A stretch of 64,000 bases of DNA. Source: Octopus sinensis. Its lineage: Eukaryota. Position 1 is the first letter of the stretch, and every line of letters starts with the position of its first letter. Under the pieces are notes generated by a model. The model saw only the letters and a list, made by a program, of their open reading frames with translations. It had not been told where the DNA came from and ran no database searches. The DNA lies in the NCBI RefSeq assembly GCF_006345805.1, contig NC_043004.1, positions 39,680,001 through 39,744,000 of the forward strand, in the 5' to 3' direction. Position numbers and translations under genes: made by a program. This document shows, piece by piece, positions 3,600 to 58,200 of the stretch.

Positions 3600-4459
3600 A
3601 ATATGTCATAGTATAACTACTGCTTACTGCTGCACATTTAAAAGAGTTTGTTGTTGGTGGTGCTAATGTTTAGCCCTTGGTAAATCATCGTTGGACAGAG
3701 GTCTTACCAATGCATTCTAAACGTTACTATTACGCCCTTTTACTTTTTCAAGTAAATTATCGAAAGCATCTTTCCGTTTTCTTTTTTAAATTGATAGGAA
3801 ATGATATGAGGGATTTGTTGCTGTTATTTCTAGTAATTCAAACCTACCCCCAATATTGAGTTCCTTTCGTTACTTCGAGACTTCTAACTGACACACAGTT
3901 TATAATGGATTTATGCTGTGGCTGGCGATAAAGTTGGGAAGTAGCAAGTAAAAATCCTATGAATAAAGTTATTTCAAAGTATTCTCCTCATATTTCCTGC
4001 TGGCTTCTTCAGTTACACGGATGTAAGTACGATATTTGATATGCATTCTTAAGAGCTTCGAGAAATAGAAGGGATGTAGGATCGAGTGTAATGTTCGGAA
4101 ATACAGCGAAGCACTTGGAAAGAAACGGAATAATAGGATTTTGTTTTAAAAGAGAAACTACTCAAAAAGTATAGAAGACAGGCAGAGAGAATAAACGAGT
4201 AAATGAATAAAATGAAGGAAGGAATGAGGGAAAAAAGGGAAGAATGGAAAATAAAAAAATGCATATATTCCTTCTTAATACGTTCGGTCACATTCAAACG
4301 TCGATAAGCTGATCGCTGTTGTATTTCGCCCTCAGAAAACATCTATCTTTAGATGATGTGTGTTCAGAAGTTCATAACACACGAGATTCAATAACGAAAG
4401 GGGAGTTGGGACTGTGAGACACCACAGCCGTGGCTTAGATAGAAGCATGCATATATATA

Positions 4460-4721
4460 TATAATAATAAATATTAGGGAATAAATCCAAATTTACAGGG
4501 AAAAATCAGATTTAGGATTGAATCCAATTTTATAGTAAAATATTATATAATATTAATTAGAGACAAAACCACTATTATGCAAATCAAACAAAGAAAGACT
4601 TAATCCAATACATAAAAAATTTTATATAAGTTAAATAAAATTAAATTCGCCACTACAATTGTTTCGTGTCTCTTCTAAGGACATTCATCAGGTGGTTTTC
4701 AGATCTTCTATTCAATTTTAA

Positions 4722-4725
<4 letters not shown>
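4460..4725 (-). mobile_element. Penelope-like/retrozyme-like insert in a (TA)n tract, carrying a hammerhead
   Basis: AT-rich island between two (TA)n runs containing a type I hammerhead fold on the minus strand. Confidence 0.6.
4650..4695 (-). ncRNA. Type I hammerhead ribozyme
   Basis: Minus strand: CCAC-CUGAUGA-AUGUC cuuagaaga GACAC-GAAA-CAAUUG-UA-GUGG. Stem I CCAC/GUGG, stem II UGUC/GACA, palindromic stem III, GUA cleavage triplet. Confidence 0.8.
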
Positions 4726-4789
<64 letters not shown>

Positions 4790-6776: not shown

Positions 6777-7960
6777 AGGGTGCGTAAGGTATTTGAGGAT
6801 ATACCTTTTTTGGGAGTCATTGCTTCATTTTTTACTAACTCTGTATAATCTTTGTTTCAGAAAATAATAATGGCAGACCCTCAGCTTACTCAAGAAATGA
6901 AAAGGCATGCTGTTAATGTAGTTATAAAGAGATTTAGAAATATTTCGATTTTTAAAATTTGCCAGACCTTTCGTCTATGAGTTAGAGACTGAAGATGGAA
7001 ACGTATTACCAGTATCAAAGCGTAAAAAGCATTCTAAACACCCTGGAACTATCAGAACAGCTGAATTTATCCAGGAAGTTCAACAGACCATTGATTACAA
7101 TCCCAGAAGTTCTATGAAGTCAGTTGCAAAAGATCTCCATGTGTCAGATGGAACAATCAGAAATGTTGTCCACGAAGACATCAGATATAATGAGTATTAT
7201 ATGATGCGGAAAGGTCAATTTCTCAGAAAAAGCAAAAGAAAATCATTACATCAGATCTAAAAGGCTTTTAAACAAACAGAAAAATCCAAAAGAAGAAGAT
7301 TTGATTTGGTTTTTCTCAAACGAGAAAAAGTTCGACCAAAATCAAACACTTCTGAAGTTCCAAGTGTTATGCATGCAACATTTCCTGCAACTATCATGAT
7401 TTTAGGGGTTGTCAGCAAAGAAGTACAAGTGATGCCTCCTTACATCTTTTCACAAGGCCTAGAGTTAACTCCGCCGCTTATGTTGAGATCCTGGAAATAA
7501 TTGTTAAGCCCTGGATAGTGTATGCAATGGAAGGCACTATCACACATGGCTCTAGTAACACAGGAATGGATTACTGAAAATGTTCATGATCACATAACCC
7601 CTAACATTAGTTCTCTTAATTCCCCAGATCTCAATCCATTGGACTATTACATGTGGAGTGCTGTTGAGAGAGATGTCAGTGAACATGCCCATAACACCAT
7701 AGATTCTTTGAAAGGTTCCATAGTCAGAGTAATGTCCAAAATTAACCAGGATCAGTTGATTCGAGGATGCAGATGATTTAGATCTCATACAGAAGCAGTT
7801 GTTGAGGCTGAAGGTGGTTTTATTGATTAACATTGTAGAAGATAATGTTTATTTTTATCCTCATAGAATTTATTTTTATGAATATTGTTATCATTTGTTA
7901 TTACATATCTCTTTTATTTTATAAACATAAATCTATCCTCAAATATCTTATGCACCTTCT
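6777..7960 (+). mobile_element. Tc1/mariner DNA transposon (probably maT/DD37D-like), decayed
   Basis: TIRs agggtgcgtaaggtatttgaggatata (6777-) and atctatcctcaaatatcttatgcacc (7931-). Inserted in a TA run. Confidence 0.88.
6870..7830 (+). pseudogene. Frameshifted Tc1/mariner transposase
   Basis: Fragments IMILGVVSKEVQVMPPYIF, NSPDLNPLDYYMWSAVE and the C-terminal EAVVEAEGGFID*, with multiple frameshifts. Confidence 0.88.
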
Positions 7961-9228: not shown

Positions 9229-9328
9229 NNNNNNNNNNNNNNNNNNNNNNNNNNNNNNNNNNNNNNNNNNNNNNNNNNNNNNNNNNNNNNNNNNNNNNNN
9301 NNNNNNNNNNNNNNNNNNNNNNNNNNNN
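9229..9328. other. Assembly gap (100 N)
   Basis: Run of n. Confidence 1.
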
Positions 9329-42072: not shown

Positions 42073-42375
42073 GGTACTAGAAGCGTAGAGTGGTCCCGGT
42101 TTGCGCACACGCGCAGACGCACGTCCGTGCTAGCCAGACGTAGGCAGTCGATCCTACGAGCTGACTGGCGCATGCACGATATATACGATATATACTTGTA
42201 TCGATATATACTTGTATATATATATATCGTATACAAGTATATATCGATACAAGTATATATCGTATATATCGTGCATGCGCCAGTCAGCTCGTAGGATCGA
42301 CTGCCTACGTCTGGCTAGCGCGGACGCGCGTCTGCGCGTGTGCGCAAACCGGGACCACTCTACGATACTAGTACC
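42073..42375. mobile_element. Foldback (palindromic) MITE with a 9-bp TSD, Mutator- or Merlin-like
   Basis: 146-bp inverted arms (42073-42218 / 42230-42375) with few mismatches and an 11-nt loop. GG...CC termini. TSD ctgaacata at 42064-42072 and 42376-42384. Confidence 0.93.
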
Positions 42376-45757: not shown

Positions 45758-45949
45758 GAATATTGTTGAGATCTGTTAAATCCATCATATTGCTGTCAAA
45801 TTCCGTGTCCTAAAAGCTTCGATATTTTGTCCGTCCAGCAAACTAACATTGTTTATGAAAACAAATAGCAACTACACCAATGATTTATATCTAAAAGTTG
45901 AACCAGCTAGGGAACTCTACGCGGTCGCTTAACACGCAAGAAACAGCAG

Positions 45950-47030
45950 TGAAGTAGACACTGGCATAGCAGTGTGATAAAGAAGTTTGGAGAGAAAATG
46001 AGTGTTTATTTTTAGTCTATTAACGGAATGTTCTTTTATATAAAATGTAAGTTGTTCAACAACTTCTGTACCACCTGCTGCATTGCCTGTGGCTGGAACA
46101 CTTACGGTTTCTACTGAATCTACTGCACCGATTGACACTTCTACTGCTTTCTTTTCCTTTTTTTTTCTTTTATGTCTTCGTAATTTCTTTGCAATGATAT
46201 TATTCTGCTCTATGTACGCATGCGTGGCGTCTTGAAGACTGTAGCTATGGTTTTGTTCCACAAATTTAATAACCGTTTTAATGTAATTTCCTGCAGCAGC
46301 CCAAGATAGCATTTCTTCAAATTTGTTGTCTTCTAAATAATGTTTTAAAACATTTCAAGAATTGTAATTCTTTGGATGATTTCTTGCAGTGAAAGTGGCT
46401 GTATGTGTCTATTCTTCTAAGCCCAGCACCATTACGTTTGCATATATGCGTATCTTTCAGATATTATTTAATGGTCTCCATAGGTTCTTGTTCTTCACAT
46501 ATCGTCTACTTTAGGTAGAATCCTTCAAAGTCTTTGTTTCAATCTCATTCTTTTGATCACCCTCTAGATTTGCGAATATAACTTTCGTCCATAACTTTCG
46601 CCGCACTCTTAAACATGTTTCAGATTTCACTACATTCGACACAGTCAGAAATAGAAGTTTTATATTTTTGATCATAAAGCTGTGTCGAAATTCTGTAAGA
46701 TTGACGTTCTTATTCACTATTTCAGTTATAAAGCCATTTTGATAATAACATTTAGAGCGTTTAATGATTATTTCATTCATGGGTTGAATCCGTAACAATA
46801 CGTTTAACAACACGCTTAAATATTCCTGCAATCCCTCACTAATTCTGTTACATACAAGTGGTTGAGAAGTAGTAAACTCTTTGTATTTATAGGTTTGAAA
46901 ATTCCCTTATGTTCTAACAAACTGATGTAACAAAATCGTAAACAAACTAATCACGAAATGTGCTTCTACTCTTCAAAGAACTATTTTGAGAATTTATAGA
47001 TCAGATGCAAATGCAACATTTCCTTAAAGG
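45950..47030 (-). pseudogene. pogo/Tigger (Jerky-like) DDE transposase remnant, C-terminal part
   Basis: Translations NVLLRIQPMNEIIIKRSKCYY (cf. TSLIQPMDQGII) and VKSETCLRVRRKLW (cf. W..V...T...W.KLW). Many stops and frameshifts. Confidence 0.7.
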
Positions 47031-49785: not shown

Positions 49786-50007
49786 GACTACTCGATTTCA
49801 CTTGCTCTGGGTAATTCTGTAAGAGCAAATAACAACTTGTTGTCAAGAGTCTCACCGGGTCTCTTTGCACGATTCTGAACAGGCAAGTGCCAAGCTCAAA
49901 ATACTCGTTGTCCTTAACAAACCAGTTTCTCAAACCTGGCTGATAATGCCCCAACAATTACTGGGATGACAGCCACTTTCTTCATTGCCCACAATCGCGC
50001 AATCTCT
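49785..50007 (-). mobile_element. 3' end of an R4/Dong-like RLE non-LTR retrotransposon, ending in (TAA)n
   Basis: The minus strand encodes EIARLWAMKKVAVIPVIVGAL...LLRTTSILS, typical of R4-clade C-termini. It is followed by a short UTR and a (TAA)n tract. Confidence 0.75.
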
Positions 50008-53971: not shown

Positions 53972-54533
53972 CACGTGCATTCATGCAGTGAGAGAGAGAG
54001 AAAGCGAATAATGAACACCCACATTCATATAGTTGCAGACGATTATATGATGTATTTTGTGCAATCATAGTCACTGAACGTAGCTGATGATGTAGCTGTC
54101 TCTAATTGATAGTCACTTTTTCGTAGGCGTTGGTCTGATGCCGAAGTAATAATTGCATAATTTGTGTAATTAGTATATAATCTAGATATTGGGAGAATTA
54201 CTGACATATAGCTAATCTGTTCGCCATTTTGTACGTTCACTCACATACATATGTACGATCGGTGACACACATACACACACACACATTCATATGTATATAT
54301 ATATATGTATATATGTATATATATATATATATATATTTACTTATACTCTCTTTACTCTTTTACTTGTTTCAGTCATTTGACTGCGGCCATACTGGAGCAC
54401 CGCCTTTAGTCGAGTAAATCGAACCCAGCACTTATTCTTTGTAAGCCTAGTACTTATTCTATCGGTCTCTTCTGCCGAACCGCTAAGTTACGGGGACGTA
54501 AACCCACCAGCATCGACGTAAACACACACGTAC

Positions 54534-54564
<31 letters not shown>

Positions 54565-54792
54565 AATTAATCAATATAGGGTGGCAAAAAAAATTTTGTA
54601 GAATTTTTTTGCCACCAGCGGCCTAGTGGGAAAAAAATTAAATAGTCATAGACCATTTTTAAGTTCAACATCACAATCAAGGAACGGCCATAATAGGCTA
54701 TTCACCCACTAGAAATAACAGCCAAAAGCTTTAACCGCAAAATAACATCAATTCCGTAAACCAGGAGAAAATTAAAAAACATTTACCCTGCA

Positions 54793-54899
54793 ATTTCTTA
54801 TACGATGCACCGTTTCGTCTACTGTTTAATGGTAAACCAACCTGATTAAATTAAATCAAGCCAATCTACCATAGGCCCTTAGATTCATCAGTAAGAAAT
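54793..54899 (-). ncRNA. Type I hammerhead ribozyme, copy 1 (extended stem II)
   Basis: Minus strand: AUUUCUUA-CUGAUGA-AUCUA...augguag auugg c uugauuuaa u uuaaucag guuggu uuaccau...UAGAC-GAAA-CGGUGCAUCG-UA-UAAGAAAU. Perfect 8-bp stem I and a GUA triplet. Confidence 0.82.
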
Positions 54900-55284
54900 A
54901 GCCAAGTCGGAACAGATATTTTTCACGAGGCATTCCCGTCCCTGCCTCGGCAATATCTGACCTAAAATTTTCAAATCATCGCACTCGCGCCAAATTTATC
55001 GGCAGCAAATAAATATAAGCCGCCGATTCCATTACGGAATTAACCAGAAAATTCATAATTAATCAATATAGGGTGGCAAAAAAAATTTTGTAGAATTTTT
55101 TTGCCACCAGCGGCCTAGTGGGAAAAAAATTAAATAGTCATAGACCATTTTTAAGATCAACATCACAATCAAGGAACGGCCATAATAGGCCATTCACCCA
55201 CTAGAAATAACAACCAAAAGCTTTAACCGCAAAATAACATCAATTCCGTAAACCAGGAGAAAATTAAAAAACATTTACCCTGCA

Positions 55285-55391
55285 ATTTCTTATACGATGC
55301 ACCGTTTCGTCTACTGTTTAATGGTAAACCAACCTGATTAAATTAAATCAAGCCAATCTACCATAGGCCCTTAGATTCATCAGTAAGAAAT
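55285..55391 (-). ncRNA. Type I hammerhead ribozyme, copy 2
   Basis: Same motif, shifted by 492 bp. Confidence 0.82.
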
Positions 55392-55701
55392 AGCCAAGTC
55401 GGAACAGATATTTTTCACGAGGCATTCCCGTCCCTGCCTCGGCAATATCTGACCTAAAATTTTCAAATCATCGCACTCGCGCCAAATTTATCGGCAGCAA
55501 ATAAATATAAGCCGCCGATTCCATTACGGAATTAACCAGAAAATTCATAATTAATCAATATAGGGTGGCAAAAAAAATTTTGTAGAATTTTTTTGCCACC
55601 ATATATATATATATATGACGGGCTTGTTTCATTTTCCGTCTATATAATCCACTCACAAGGCTTTGGTCGGCTCGAGGCTATAGTAGAAGACACTTGCCAT
55701 C

Positions 55702-57329: not shown

Positions 57330-57383
<54 letters not shown>

Positions 57384-57387
<4 letters not shown>

Positions 57388-57437
57388 TTACTAATGCAGC
57401 CGTACGCTCCGAACCTATGCGGAGAGACCTCAGTATT

Positions 57438-57468
<31 letters not shown>

Positions 57469-57528
57469 TATATGCACTTACTAATGCAGCCGTACCCTCC
57501 GAACCTATGCGGAGAGACCTCAGTATTT
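57384..57528. repeat. Two 55-bp direct repeats separated and flanked by (TA)n
   Basis: gcacttactaatgcagccgtac(g/c)ctccgaacctatgcggagagacctcagtattt at 57384 and 57474. Confidence 0.9.
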
Positions 57529-57545
57529 ATATATATATATATACA

Positions 57546-58200
57546 AGGCTGCGAGATAGCAGAAACGTTAGCACGCCGGGCAAAATGCTTAGCGGTATTT
57601 CGTCTGTCGTTACGTTCTGAGTTCAAATTCCGCCGAGGTCGACTTTGCCTTTCATCCTTTCGGGGAAGATAAATAAAGTACCAGTTTCGCACTGGGGTCG
57701 ATGTAATCGACTTAATCCGTTTGTCTGTCCTTGTTTATCCTCTCTGTGTTTAGCCCCTTGTGGGTAGTAAAGAAATAGGTATTTTGTCTGTCTAAAGGCG
57801 GCAAGCTGGCAGAAACGTTAGCATGCCGGGCGAAATGCGTAGCCGTATTTCGTCTGCTGTTACGTTCTGATTTCAAATTCCGCCGAGGTCGACTTTACCT
57901 TTCATCCTTTCGGGGTCGATTAAATAATTACCAGTTACGCACTGGGGTTGATATAATCGATTTAATCCGTTTGTCTGTCTTTGTTTATCCTCTCTGTGTT
58001 TAACCCCTTCTGGGTAGTAAAGAAATTGGTATTTCTTCTGTCTTTGCGTTCTGAGTTCAAATTCCACCGAGGTTGACTTTGCCTTTCATCCTTCCGGGGT
58101 TGATAAATTAAGTACCAGTTGCCTACTGGGGTCGATCAAATTGACTGGCTCCCCCATTCCCCCAAAATTTCGGGCATTGTGCCTAGAGTAGAAAAGAATA
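57546..58200 (+). mobile_element. Nested trimer of family A SINEs
   Basis: Full copies at about 57546-57777 and 57794-58027, then a headless copy at 58028-58200. Confidence 0.9.

Follow-up and report, generated by a model that had tools for sequence, protein, structure and literature searches.

In coral, mussel, and axolotl, tandem units with type I hammerheads give rise to RNAs in both linear and circular form (PMC7229834); the mussel retrozyme of 350–390 bp provides a mollusc example (Cervera and de la Pena 2020, PMC7229834). In Xenopus, retrozymes derive from the terminal repeats of Penelope elements; only one of nine predicted dimers was cleaved in vitro (10.64898/2026.07.22.740005), a result that also serves as a warning for the copy described here. 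Penelope-like elements form partial tandems, carry a tail of 30–40 bp and, in some clades, show a preference for (TA)n targets (PMC8557442). The giant squid genome has been reported, without detail, to contain 235 Rfam hammerhead loci (PMC6962438). Stem II of the hammerhead normally closes with a highly conserved G10.1–C11.1 pair, and exceptions, for example U–U, are on record (PMC3088659, PMC7229834). Neither a cephalopod retrozyme nor the family described below was found in the article texts searched; article supplements or the Repbase and Dfam collections may contain it.

This study concerns a tandem array in a 64-kb window of Octopus sinensis DNA, the window being the whole stretch of 64,000 nucleotides analyzed. 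We strongly favor the explanation that the array goes back to one recent insertion of a non-LTR retrozyme, non-coding and present in many copies, which is predicted to cut itself and would circularize and be recopied into TA sequence. Assignment of the element to the non-LTR retrozymes, as a probable non-autonomous Penelope-like element, is in itself highly probable. A preliminary description of the locus had proposed a retrozyme-like class, which gains support from the tandem non-coding unit, the hammerhead in every unit, the high copy number in several organisms, the (TA)n target, the short terminal extension, and probable transcription of the ribozyme strand. The SINEs and the repeat content of the window resemble those of an octopus.

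Comparison with described elements

Like metazoan non-LTR retrozymes as the available sources present them, the array is a multi-copy, non-coding tandem with a type I hammerhead in each unit, a GC content below 50%, and no LTR anatomy, and its two consecutive units with complete motifs agree with the working definition of Li, Clavereau and Pollet 2026. The 492-nt unit exceeds the 170–400 nt range of Cervera and falls within the 51–972 bp range of Li, as given in those sources. It departs from metazoan non-LTR retrozymes, so far as these sources describe them, in a 68-nt stem II with a 19-bp hairpin and in an A10.1–U/C11.1 combination in place of G–C. Furthermore, the core is predicted to be blocked within the monomer, whereas such a self-block is absent from most metazoan circles (PMC7229834), and the family shows signs of A-to-I editing, unlike non-LTR retrozymes as described there.

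Penelope-like elements share with the array the partial tandem, the short extension, and the (TA)n target (PMC4209133, PMC8557442), while their hammerheads share a dimer-favoring palindromic stem III and an A immediately after A9 (PMC4209133). Unlike these elements as described, the array has no reverse transcriptase (RT) or GIY-YIG open reading frame and shows a 53-nt overlap rather than a 30–40-bp tail; unlike their hammerheads, it has an 8-bp stem I and no G10.1–C11.1 pair (PMC4209133). Satellite 2 of newt and axolotl likewise consists of tandem hammerheads, whose palindromic stem III makes the dimer the more effective form (PMC7229834). From these the array differs, on the same description, in unit length (492 versus 330–350 nt), in the predicted 12-bp helix between units, and in the long stem II.

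The array and its insertion site

Tandem Repeats Finder reported an array with a period of 492, 2.1 copies, and 99% matches, the coordinates of which are collected in Table 1. This call and the alignments to a short interspersed element (SINE) agree with the earlier claim of 2.1 head-to-tail, non-coding 492-bp copies within the (TA)n tract of a SINE. The two units have a GC content of 37%, are 99.4% identical, and disagree at three sites (54664/55156, 54699/55191, and 54721/55213); the longest stop-free frame of the unit concatemer comprises 44 codons. The sequence next to the array matches three intact copies of a single SINE, on either side of its internal (CA)n(TA)n tract, indicating that the element inserted into this tract; since the target is a microsatellite, no target duplication is readable. 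The hairpin originally described as shared by both array ends is indeed present at both, merely because it belongs to a 53-nt terminal redundancy that occurs three times. This redundancy resembles the "tail" of Penelope elements.

Table 1 Features of the array and its surroundings (window positions)
Feature	Position	Strand	Basis or detail
Whole insertion: two 492-nt units plus 53-nt terminal redundancy	54565..55601	-	Repeat call, unit comparison
Terminal redundancy, 53 nt, with 13-bp hairpin	55549..55601	-	Other copies 54565–54617, 55057–55109
Left (TA)n tract of target site	54538..54564	.	Sequence
Right (TA)n tract of target site	55602..55616	.	Sequence
Host SINE, portion left of insertion	54346..54537	.	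Alignment
Host SINE, portion right of insertion	55617..55698	.	Shorter than in intact copies
Type I hammerhead, upstream copy	55285..55391	-	C3 55383, G12 55308, predicted cut after 55293
Type I hammerhead, downstream copy	54793..54899	-	C3 54891, G12 54816, predicted cut after 54801
Extended stem II, 68 nt	54817..54884, also 55309–55376	-	10.1–11.1 pair plus 4 bp, internal loop, 19-bp hairpin
Self-complementary 12-nt stem III	54802..54813, also 55294–55305	-	Prediction
Predicted monomer from double cleavage (candidate circle)	54801..55292	-	Inference
Candidate A-to-I sites	54847, 54872, 54879 (stem II) and 54730	-	A>G in run X8 versus DNA-type runs

The letter at 54791 is common to both units and accounts for approximately 1% of family depth in run X1, which argues that the units come from one template; the A at 55156, private to unit 2, makes up less than 0.1% of family depth. 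Read along the minus strand, the array starts 309 nt ahead of the first predicted cut and stops 236 nt beyond the second. A linear monomer left by cleavage was therefore not the template, which was either a multimer that stayed uncut or a circle copied through 2.1 turns. Reverse transcription over more than one turn would explain the circularly permuted 2.1-mer with its 53-nt overlap. Profile and homology look-ups of the window frames found no host gene. RNA polymerase III terminates at U runs, and the absence of a B box from the 492-nt unit, together with three U runs of 6–8 per unit, is evidence against polymerase III read-through; no tRNA was found either.

Elsewhere in the window, another small tandem (90-bp unit, 2.2 copies) lies between (TA)n tracts at 57343–57543 and is adjoined by a 250-bp SINE-like dimer at 57545–58043. 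An assembly gap of 100 N occupies 9229–9328.

The hammerhead motif

A descriptor search located a type I hammerhead with an 8-bp stem I and a GUA site on the minus strand of each unit, in agreement with the preliminary description. All elements of the type I core (C3–A9, G12–A15.1, and U16.1–H17) and the three stems are present, and N17, the A of GUA, lies at 55293 and 54801. The predicted cuts, 55293/55292 and 54801/54800, delimit a 492-nt monomer, and the cut positions and exact 492-nt spacing proposed earlier are thus matched by the hammerhead coordinates. In 100 block-shuffled windows no match had a stem I of at least 8 bp, and loose matches numbered seven in total; no hammerhead of comparable quality appeared in 3000 shuffled units. 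The motif therefore exceeds chance.

The Rfam scan of the array, a check suggested at the outset, listed 14 matches at E ≤ 10, none of them to a hammerhead model, likely because of the long stem II. Across the whole window, the Rfam matches listed (150 of 205) were only of microsatellite-driven microRNA type; the top spurious ones stem from a long, MITE-like inverted repeat at 42100–42348, in which 78 of the first 80 bases pair. The long extension of stem II, put at about 70 nt in the original account, is real and spans 68 nt (54884–54817). Its 19-bp hairpin (54829–54872) includes six G–U pairs and has a predicted energy of −20.7 kcal/mol on the minus strand versus −6.7 kcal/mol on the plus strand. 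By inspection only, GGCU (54903–54900) could form 4 bp with GGCC of the stem II internal loop (54877–54874), a possible candidate for a tertiary contact between the stem I 5′ flank and that loop.

A second type I hammerhead occurs on the minus strand at 4635–4700 (C3 at 4691, N17 at 4654), with a palindromic stem III and the same A10.1–C11.1 opposition as the array copies; because its stem I has only 4 bp, it stands near the level of loose matches (seven per 100 shuffled windows). It sits in a solo, AT-rich element of 270 bp (~4457–4727) between (TA)n tracts, which has no similarity to the 492-nt unit by BLAST and looks like a fragment of a Penelope terminal repeat.

Predicted folds of monomer and dimer

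Folding was predicted at the level of secondary structure, excluding tertiary contacts and magnesium. For an RNA of two units (1037 nt), the unconstrained minimum-energy fold is a double hammerhead at −335.7 kcal/mol, in which the stem III palindromes pair between units as a 12-bp helix predicted at −17.5 kcal/mol. Two single hammerheads in the same RNA reach −327.0 kcal/mol, 8.7 kcal/mol above the double form, and the respective ensemble shares are 3e-8 and 2.6e-2. In the monomer, the active hammerhead has a stem III of only four pairs, lies 3 kcal/mol above the best fold, a gap that could be overcome, and takes a share of approximately 1e-3. It is disfavored because G5–G8 are predicted to pair with the stem III palindrome, at 54804–54807 in the monomer circle, with a probability of about 0.8. 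Taken together, the predictions describe a stem III palindrome that would block the core in the monomer, while the joining of two units would free both cores.

The fold of the monomer circle has a z-score of −6.5 on the minus strand and also −5.2 on the plus strand, so this measure alone says little about the strand. Among predicted pairs, G–U accounts for 24 of 146 on the minus strand versus 4 of 128 on the plus strand.

Family size and sequence variation

The unit or part of it was detected in 20 of the 22 listed runs (11 studies, organism labels A–D); one feces metagenome run is also among the listed runs, with a small share of 0.05, and is not taken as evidence. Four runs aligned on one unit (54700–55191) contributed 14,144, 6,978, 1,675, and 95 contigs and covered 29 of 29 bins, the alignment consisting of contigs only, whose summed depth is no copy number. 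Depths of single contigs rose to 2,712 and 1,682 versus approximately 10 for the rarest listed pieces, so the family likely has hundreds to thousands of copies. As a repeat family it is apparently both large and recent. The best DNA run may be the window's own source and is not independent of it.

At stem II, the window copy shows an A10.1–C11.1 opposition in place of the usual closing pair. This opposition, singled out as unusual in the preliminary description, is present in this copy and represents one allele rather than a defining character of the family: the four runs carry U11.1 in 51, 72, 90, and 96% of their depth, so that an A–U pair is commoner than the A–C of the window. Because this copy has A–C where hammerheads usually have G10.1–C11.1, and because C11.1 accounts for only 4% of depth in run X8, this locus may be weakly active or silent.

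Among the variants listed (40 of 56), those in the core fall only at N7. The lack of listed variants at the 12 fixed core positions is weak evidence by itself, as it would arise by chance with a probability of about 0.4 by hand arithmetic from 36 variable places in 492. Four of the five listed variants in stems I–III keep or create a pair, and the fifth, at 54821, would be restored by that at 54880 (A–U to G–C) if the two are linked. Over the whole unit, the listed variants keep 16 predicted pairs, break 14, and fall at 10 unpaired positions, which gives no clear sign that the fold is conserved beyond the hammerhead. One common variant, at 54868 (55–72%), breaks a pair of the 19-bp stem II hairpin.

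Loose ends at 54875, 54894, and 54920–54924 mark subfamilies in which sequence around the hammerhead has been exchanged. In one of them stem II starts differently after the core; in others the stem I 5′ flank is changed and the adjacent GGC kept. Among the loose ends listed (24 of 224), ends in (TA)n occur at 55156 (X2, six records) and 55161 (X8, one record), which suggests further insertions into TA tracts with different ends; ends thus seem to vary among copies, as copying of a circle would give. A joint at which the sequence goes back was seen in X1, X2, and X8, but a copy of 1.1 units would cross the same break, so it proves neither tandem nor circle. Depth in X1 is higher over 55057–55107. 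This would fit a tail present in excess, but depth in contigs is no basis for ranking parts of the unit.

Pattern searches for relatives gave no candidate that was retained. The exact 24-nt pattern had no match in metagenome contigs; a gapped version hit 23 metagenome loci, attributed to chance, with stem I never longer than 1 bp and no BLAST similarity. A short pattern hit 89 loci in viral contigs, also attributed to chance, of which one had an upstream core motif without hammerhead anatomy and two had a 25-nt match only.

Probable transcription and A-to-I editing

Run X8, taken to be RNA by guess, is one run with 79 million letters of contigs and does not come from the individual of the DNA runs; its signal concerns the family rather than this locus. 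Among the variants listed (40 of 56), A>G changes at the four candidate sites of Table 1 reach 12–25% in X8 versus at most 0.06% in three DNA-type runs, an enrichment of 202- to 2,589-fold over the highest DNA-type run. Support for 54730, 54847, 54872, and 54879 comes from 2, 9, 6, and 4 X8 contigs, respectively. On the ribozyme strand each of the four is an A>G change. Three of them fall within stem II, and none follows a G, the 5′ neighbor that ADAR disfavors. That four of four would fall in the predicted class by chance has a probability below 1 in 100 if the sites are independent, which they may not be. A>G is also raised at 54880 and 54892. The next most enriched change in X8, U>A at 54733 (7-fold), comes from one diverged contig, showing that rare genomic copies can stand out in RNA too.

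In view of this pattern, we hold A-to-I editing of the family RNA, as ADAR would give, to be probably real. Among the loose ends listed (24 of 224), one in X8 consists of poly-T and lies at the A run near 55096, which fits oligo-dT priming on the ribozyme strand, and this strand is probably transcribed at the level of the family, judging from this one probable RNA run. Animals commonly edit their repeats, and octopus does so at a high level (PMC5625713), so such editing would show transcription and folding, not function. Editing of the A10.1–C11.1 opposition to I–C was considered and found unsupported, as 54884 is absent among the variants listed (40 of 56) and 96% of X8 depth carries U11.1.

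A more speculative scheme, which we consider improbable, holds that the ribozyme of a very abundant cephalopod retrozyme is switched off in the monomer circle and on in the tandem by its stem III palindrome, and is tuned by ADAR. A dedicated 19-bp, G–U-rich hairpin grafted onto stem II would recruit the enzyme, which would edit adenosines in the stem II internal loop and beside the core. If true, it would provide a natural editing-controlled ribozyme and a source of circles in animals that edit heavily. Among the literature matches listed (15 of 3,244), no edited natural retrozyme and no editing-controlled case was found.

Proposed mechanism and alternative explanations

In the proposed mechanism, the minus-strand RNA would fold as a double hammerhead when two units are joined, and in a lone unit the catalytic core would be masked by the stem III palindrome, with which it pairs. 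By analogy with the retrozymes of other animals, double cleavage at the GUA sites would release the 492-nt monomer, and a host RNA ligase would close it into a circle. The long stem II would be edited by ADAR, to judge from one probable RNA run. A borrowed Penelope-type RT and endonuclease would then copy the circle over more than one turn into TA microsatellites. It is reasonably probable that family members cleave, mainly as dimers, and the formation of circles in vivo is slightly favored.

The scan of 112 frames in the 64-kb window yielded no Penelope RT or GIY-YIG open reading frame. Other fragments of mobile or decayed sequence were observed. On the minus strand at 45932–46906, two AT-rich frames of 141 and 131 codons are possibly a decayed insertion. 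The 141-codon frame has no Pfam match and only weakly resembles ankyrin-like proteins, including some of large DNA viruses, with scores of 0.92–0.94 but low recognition; no homolog was found for its first 72 residues. Also on the minus strand, at 49790–50005, a short interrupted frame with a (TAA)n tract after it resembles the 3′ end of a LINE with a restriction-like endonuclease. A transposase-type helix-turn-helix fragment (PF13542) lies at 6928–7257, with an E-value of 1.7e-4 under the curated cutoff.

Ends that lie away from the cut sites are equally compatible with a circle and with a linear template that stayed uncut. The unit might instead be a terminal repeat or linear non-autonomous derivative of a Penelope-like element, copied from uncut tandem transcripts, with no circle and a hammerhead that is slow or serves only to trim precursors. 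Penelope hammerheads with a palindromic stem III are described in the literature as cleaving poorly in vitro, and the window holds the A–C hammerhead in the solo, (TA)n-flanked 270-bp element (4457–4727), both of which speak for this alternative. We nevertheless regard it as unlikely, since depth extends over all 29 unit bins in all four runs, none of the loose ends listed (24 of 224) enters long unrelated sequence, the share running on into unlike sequence is 0 in the three DNA-type runs, and the 8-bp stem I exceeds the 4–5 bp of minimal Penelope hammerheads.

Spread of the unit as DNA, through a Helitron or Helentron rolling-circle transposase or as a satellite with the hammerhead as a passenger, is very unlikely. 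Helitron 3′ ends consist of a hairpin followed by CTRR, and Helitron-type elements also form tandems; here, too, a CTAG (55115) stands 6 nt beyond the 13-bp hairpin when the plus strand is read. However, the right end of the array falls just past the hairpin and short of CTAG, so that it does not terminate at a CTRR as a Helitron or Helentron would, other (TA)n junctions lie elsewhere in the unit (24 of 224 loose ends listed), and the G–U-rich helices are predicted to work only as minus-strand RNA. The preliminary description had also named an assembly duplication as an outcome that would overturn it. That a single unit plus 53 nt exists and the second unit arose in assembly would accord with the 99.4% identity, with the rare 54791 allele in both units, and with the fact that no long read or contig spans the array; yet the three differences between units, including an A at 55156 that is nearly private in the family, and the presence of each SINE flank only once make this extremely unlikely.

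Significance

Non-LTR retrozymes as a class are known from many animals; this family differs in the long stem II, the A–Y pair, the predicted self-block, and the editing signal. That the Rfam models miss it suggests that counts of hammerheads fall short where stem II carries a long insertion. The predicted fold, off in the monomer and on in the dimer, is a possible answer to what stops metazoan circles from cutting themselves, a question left open in PMC7229834. Finally, in view of the A>G signal, the family would offer a simple substrate from nature on which to study whether a ribozyme is altered by RNA editing.
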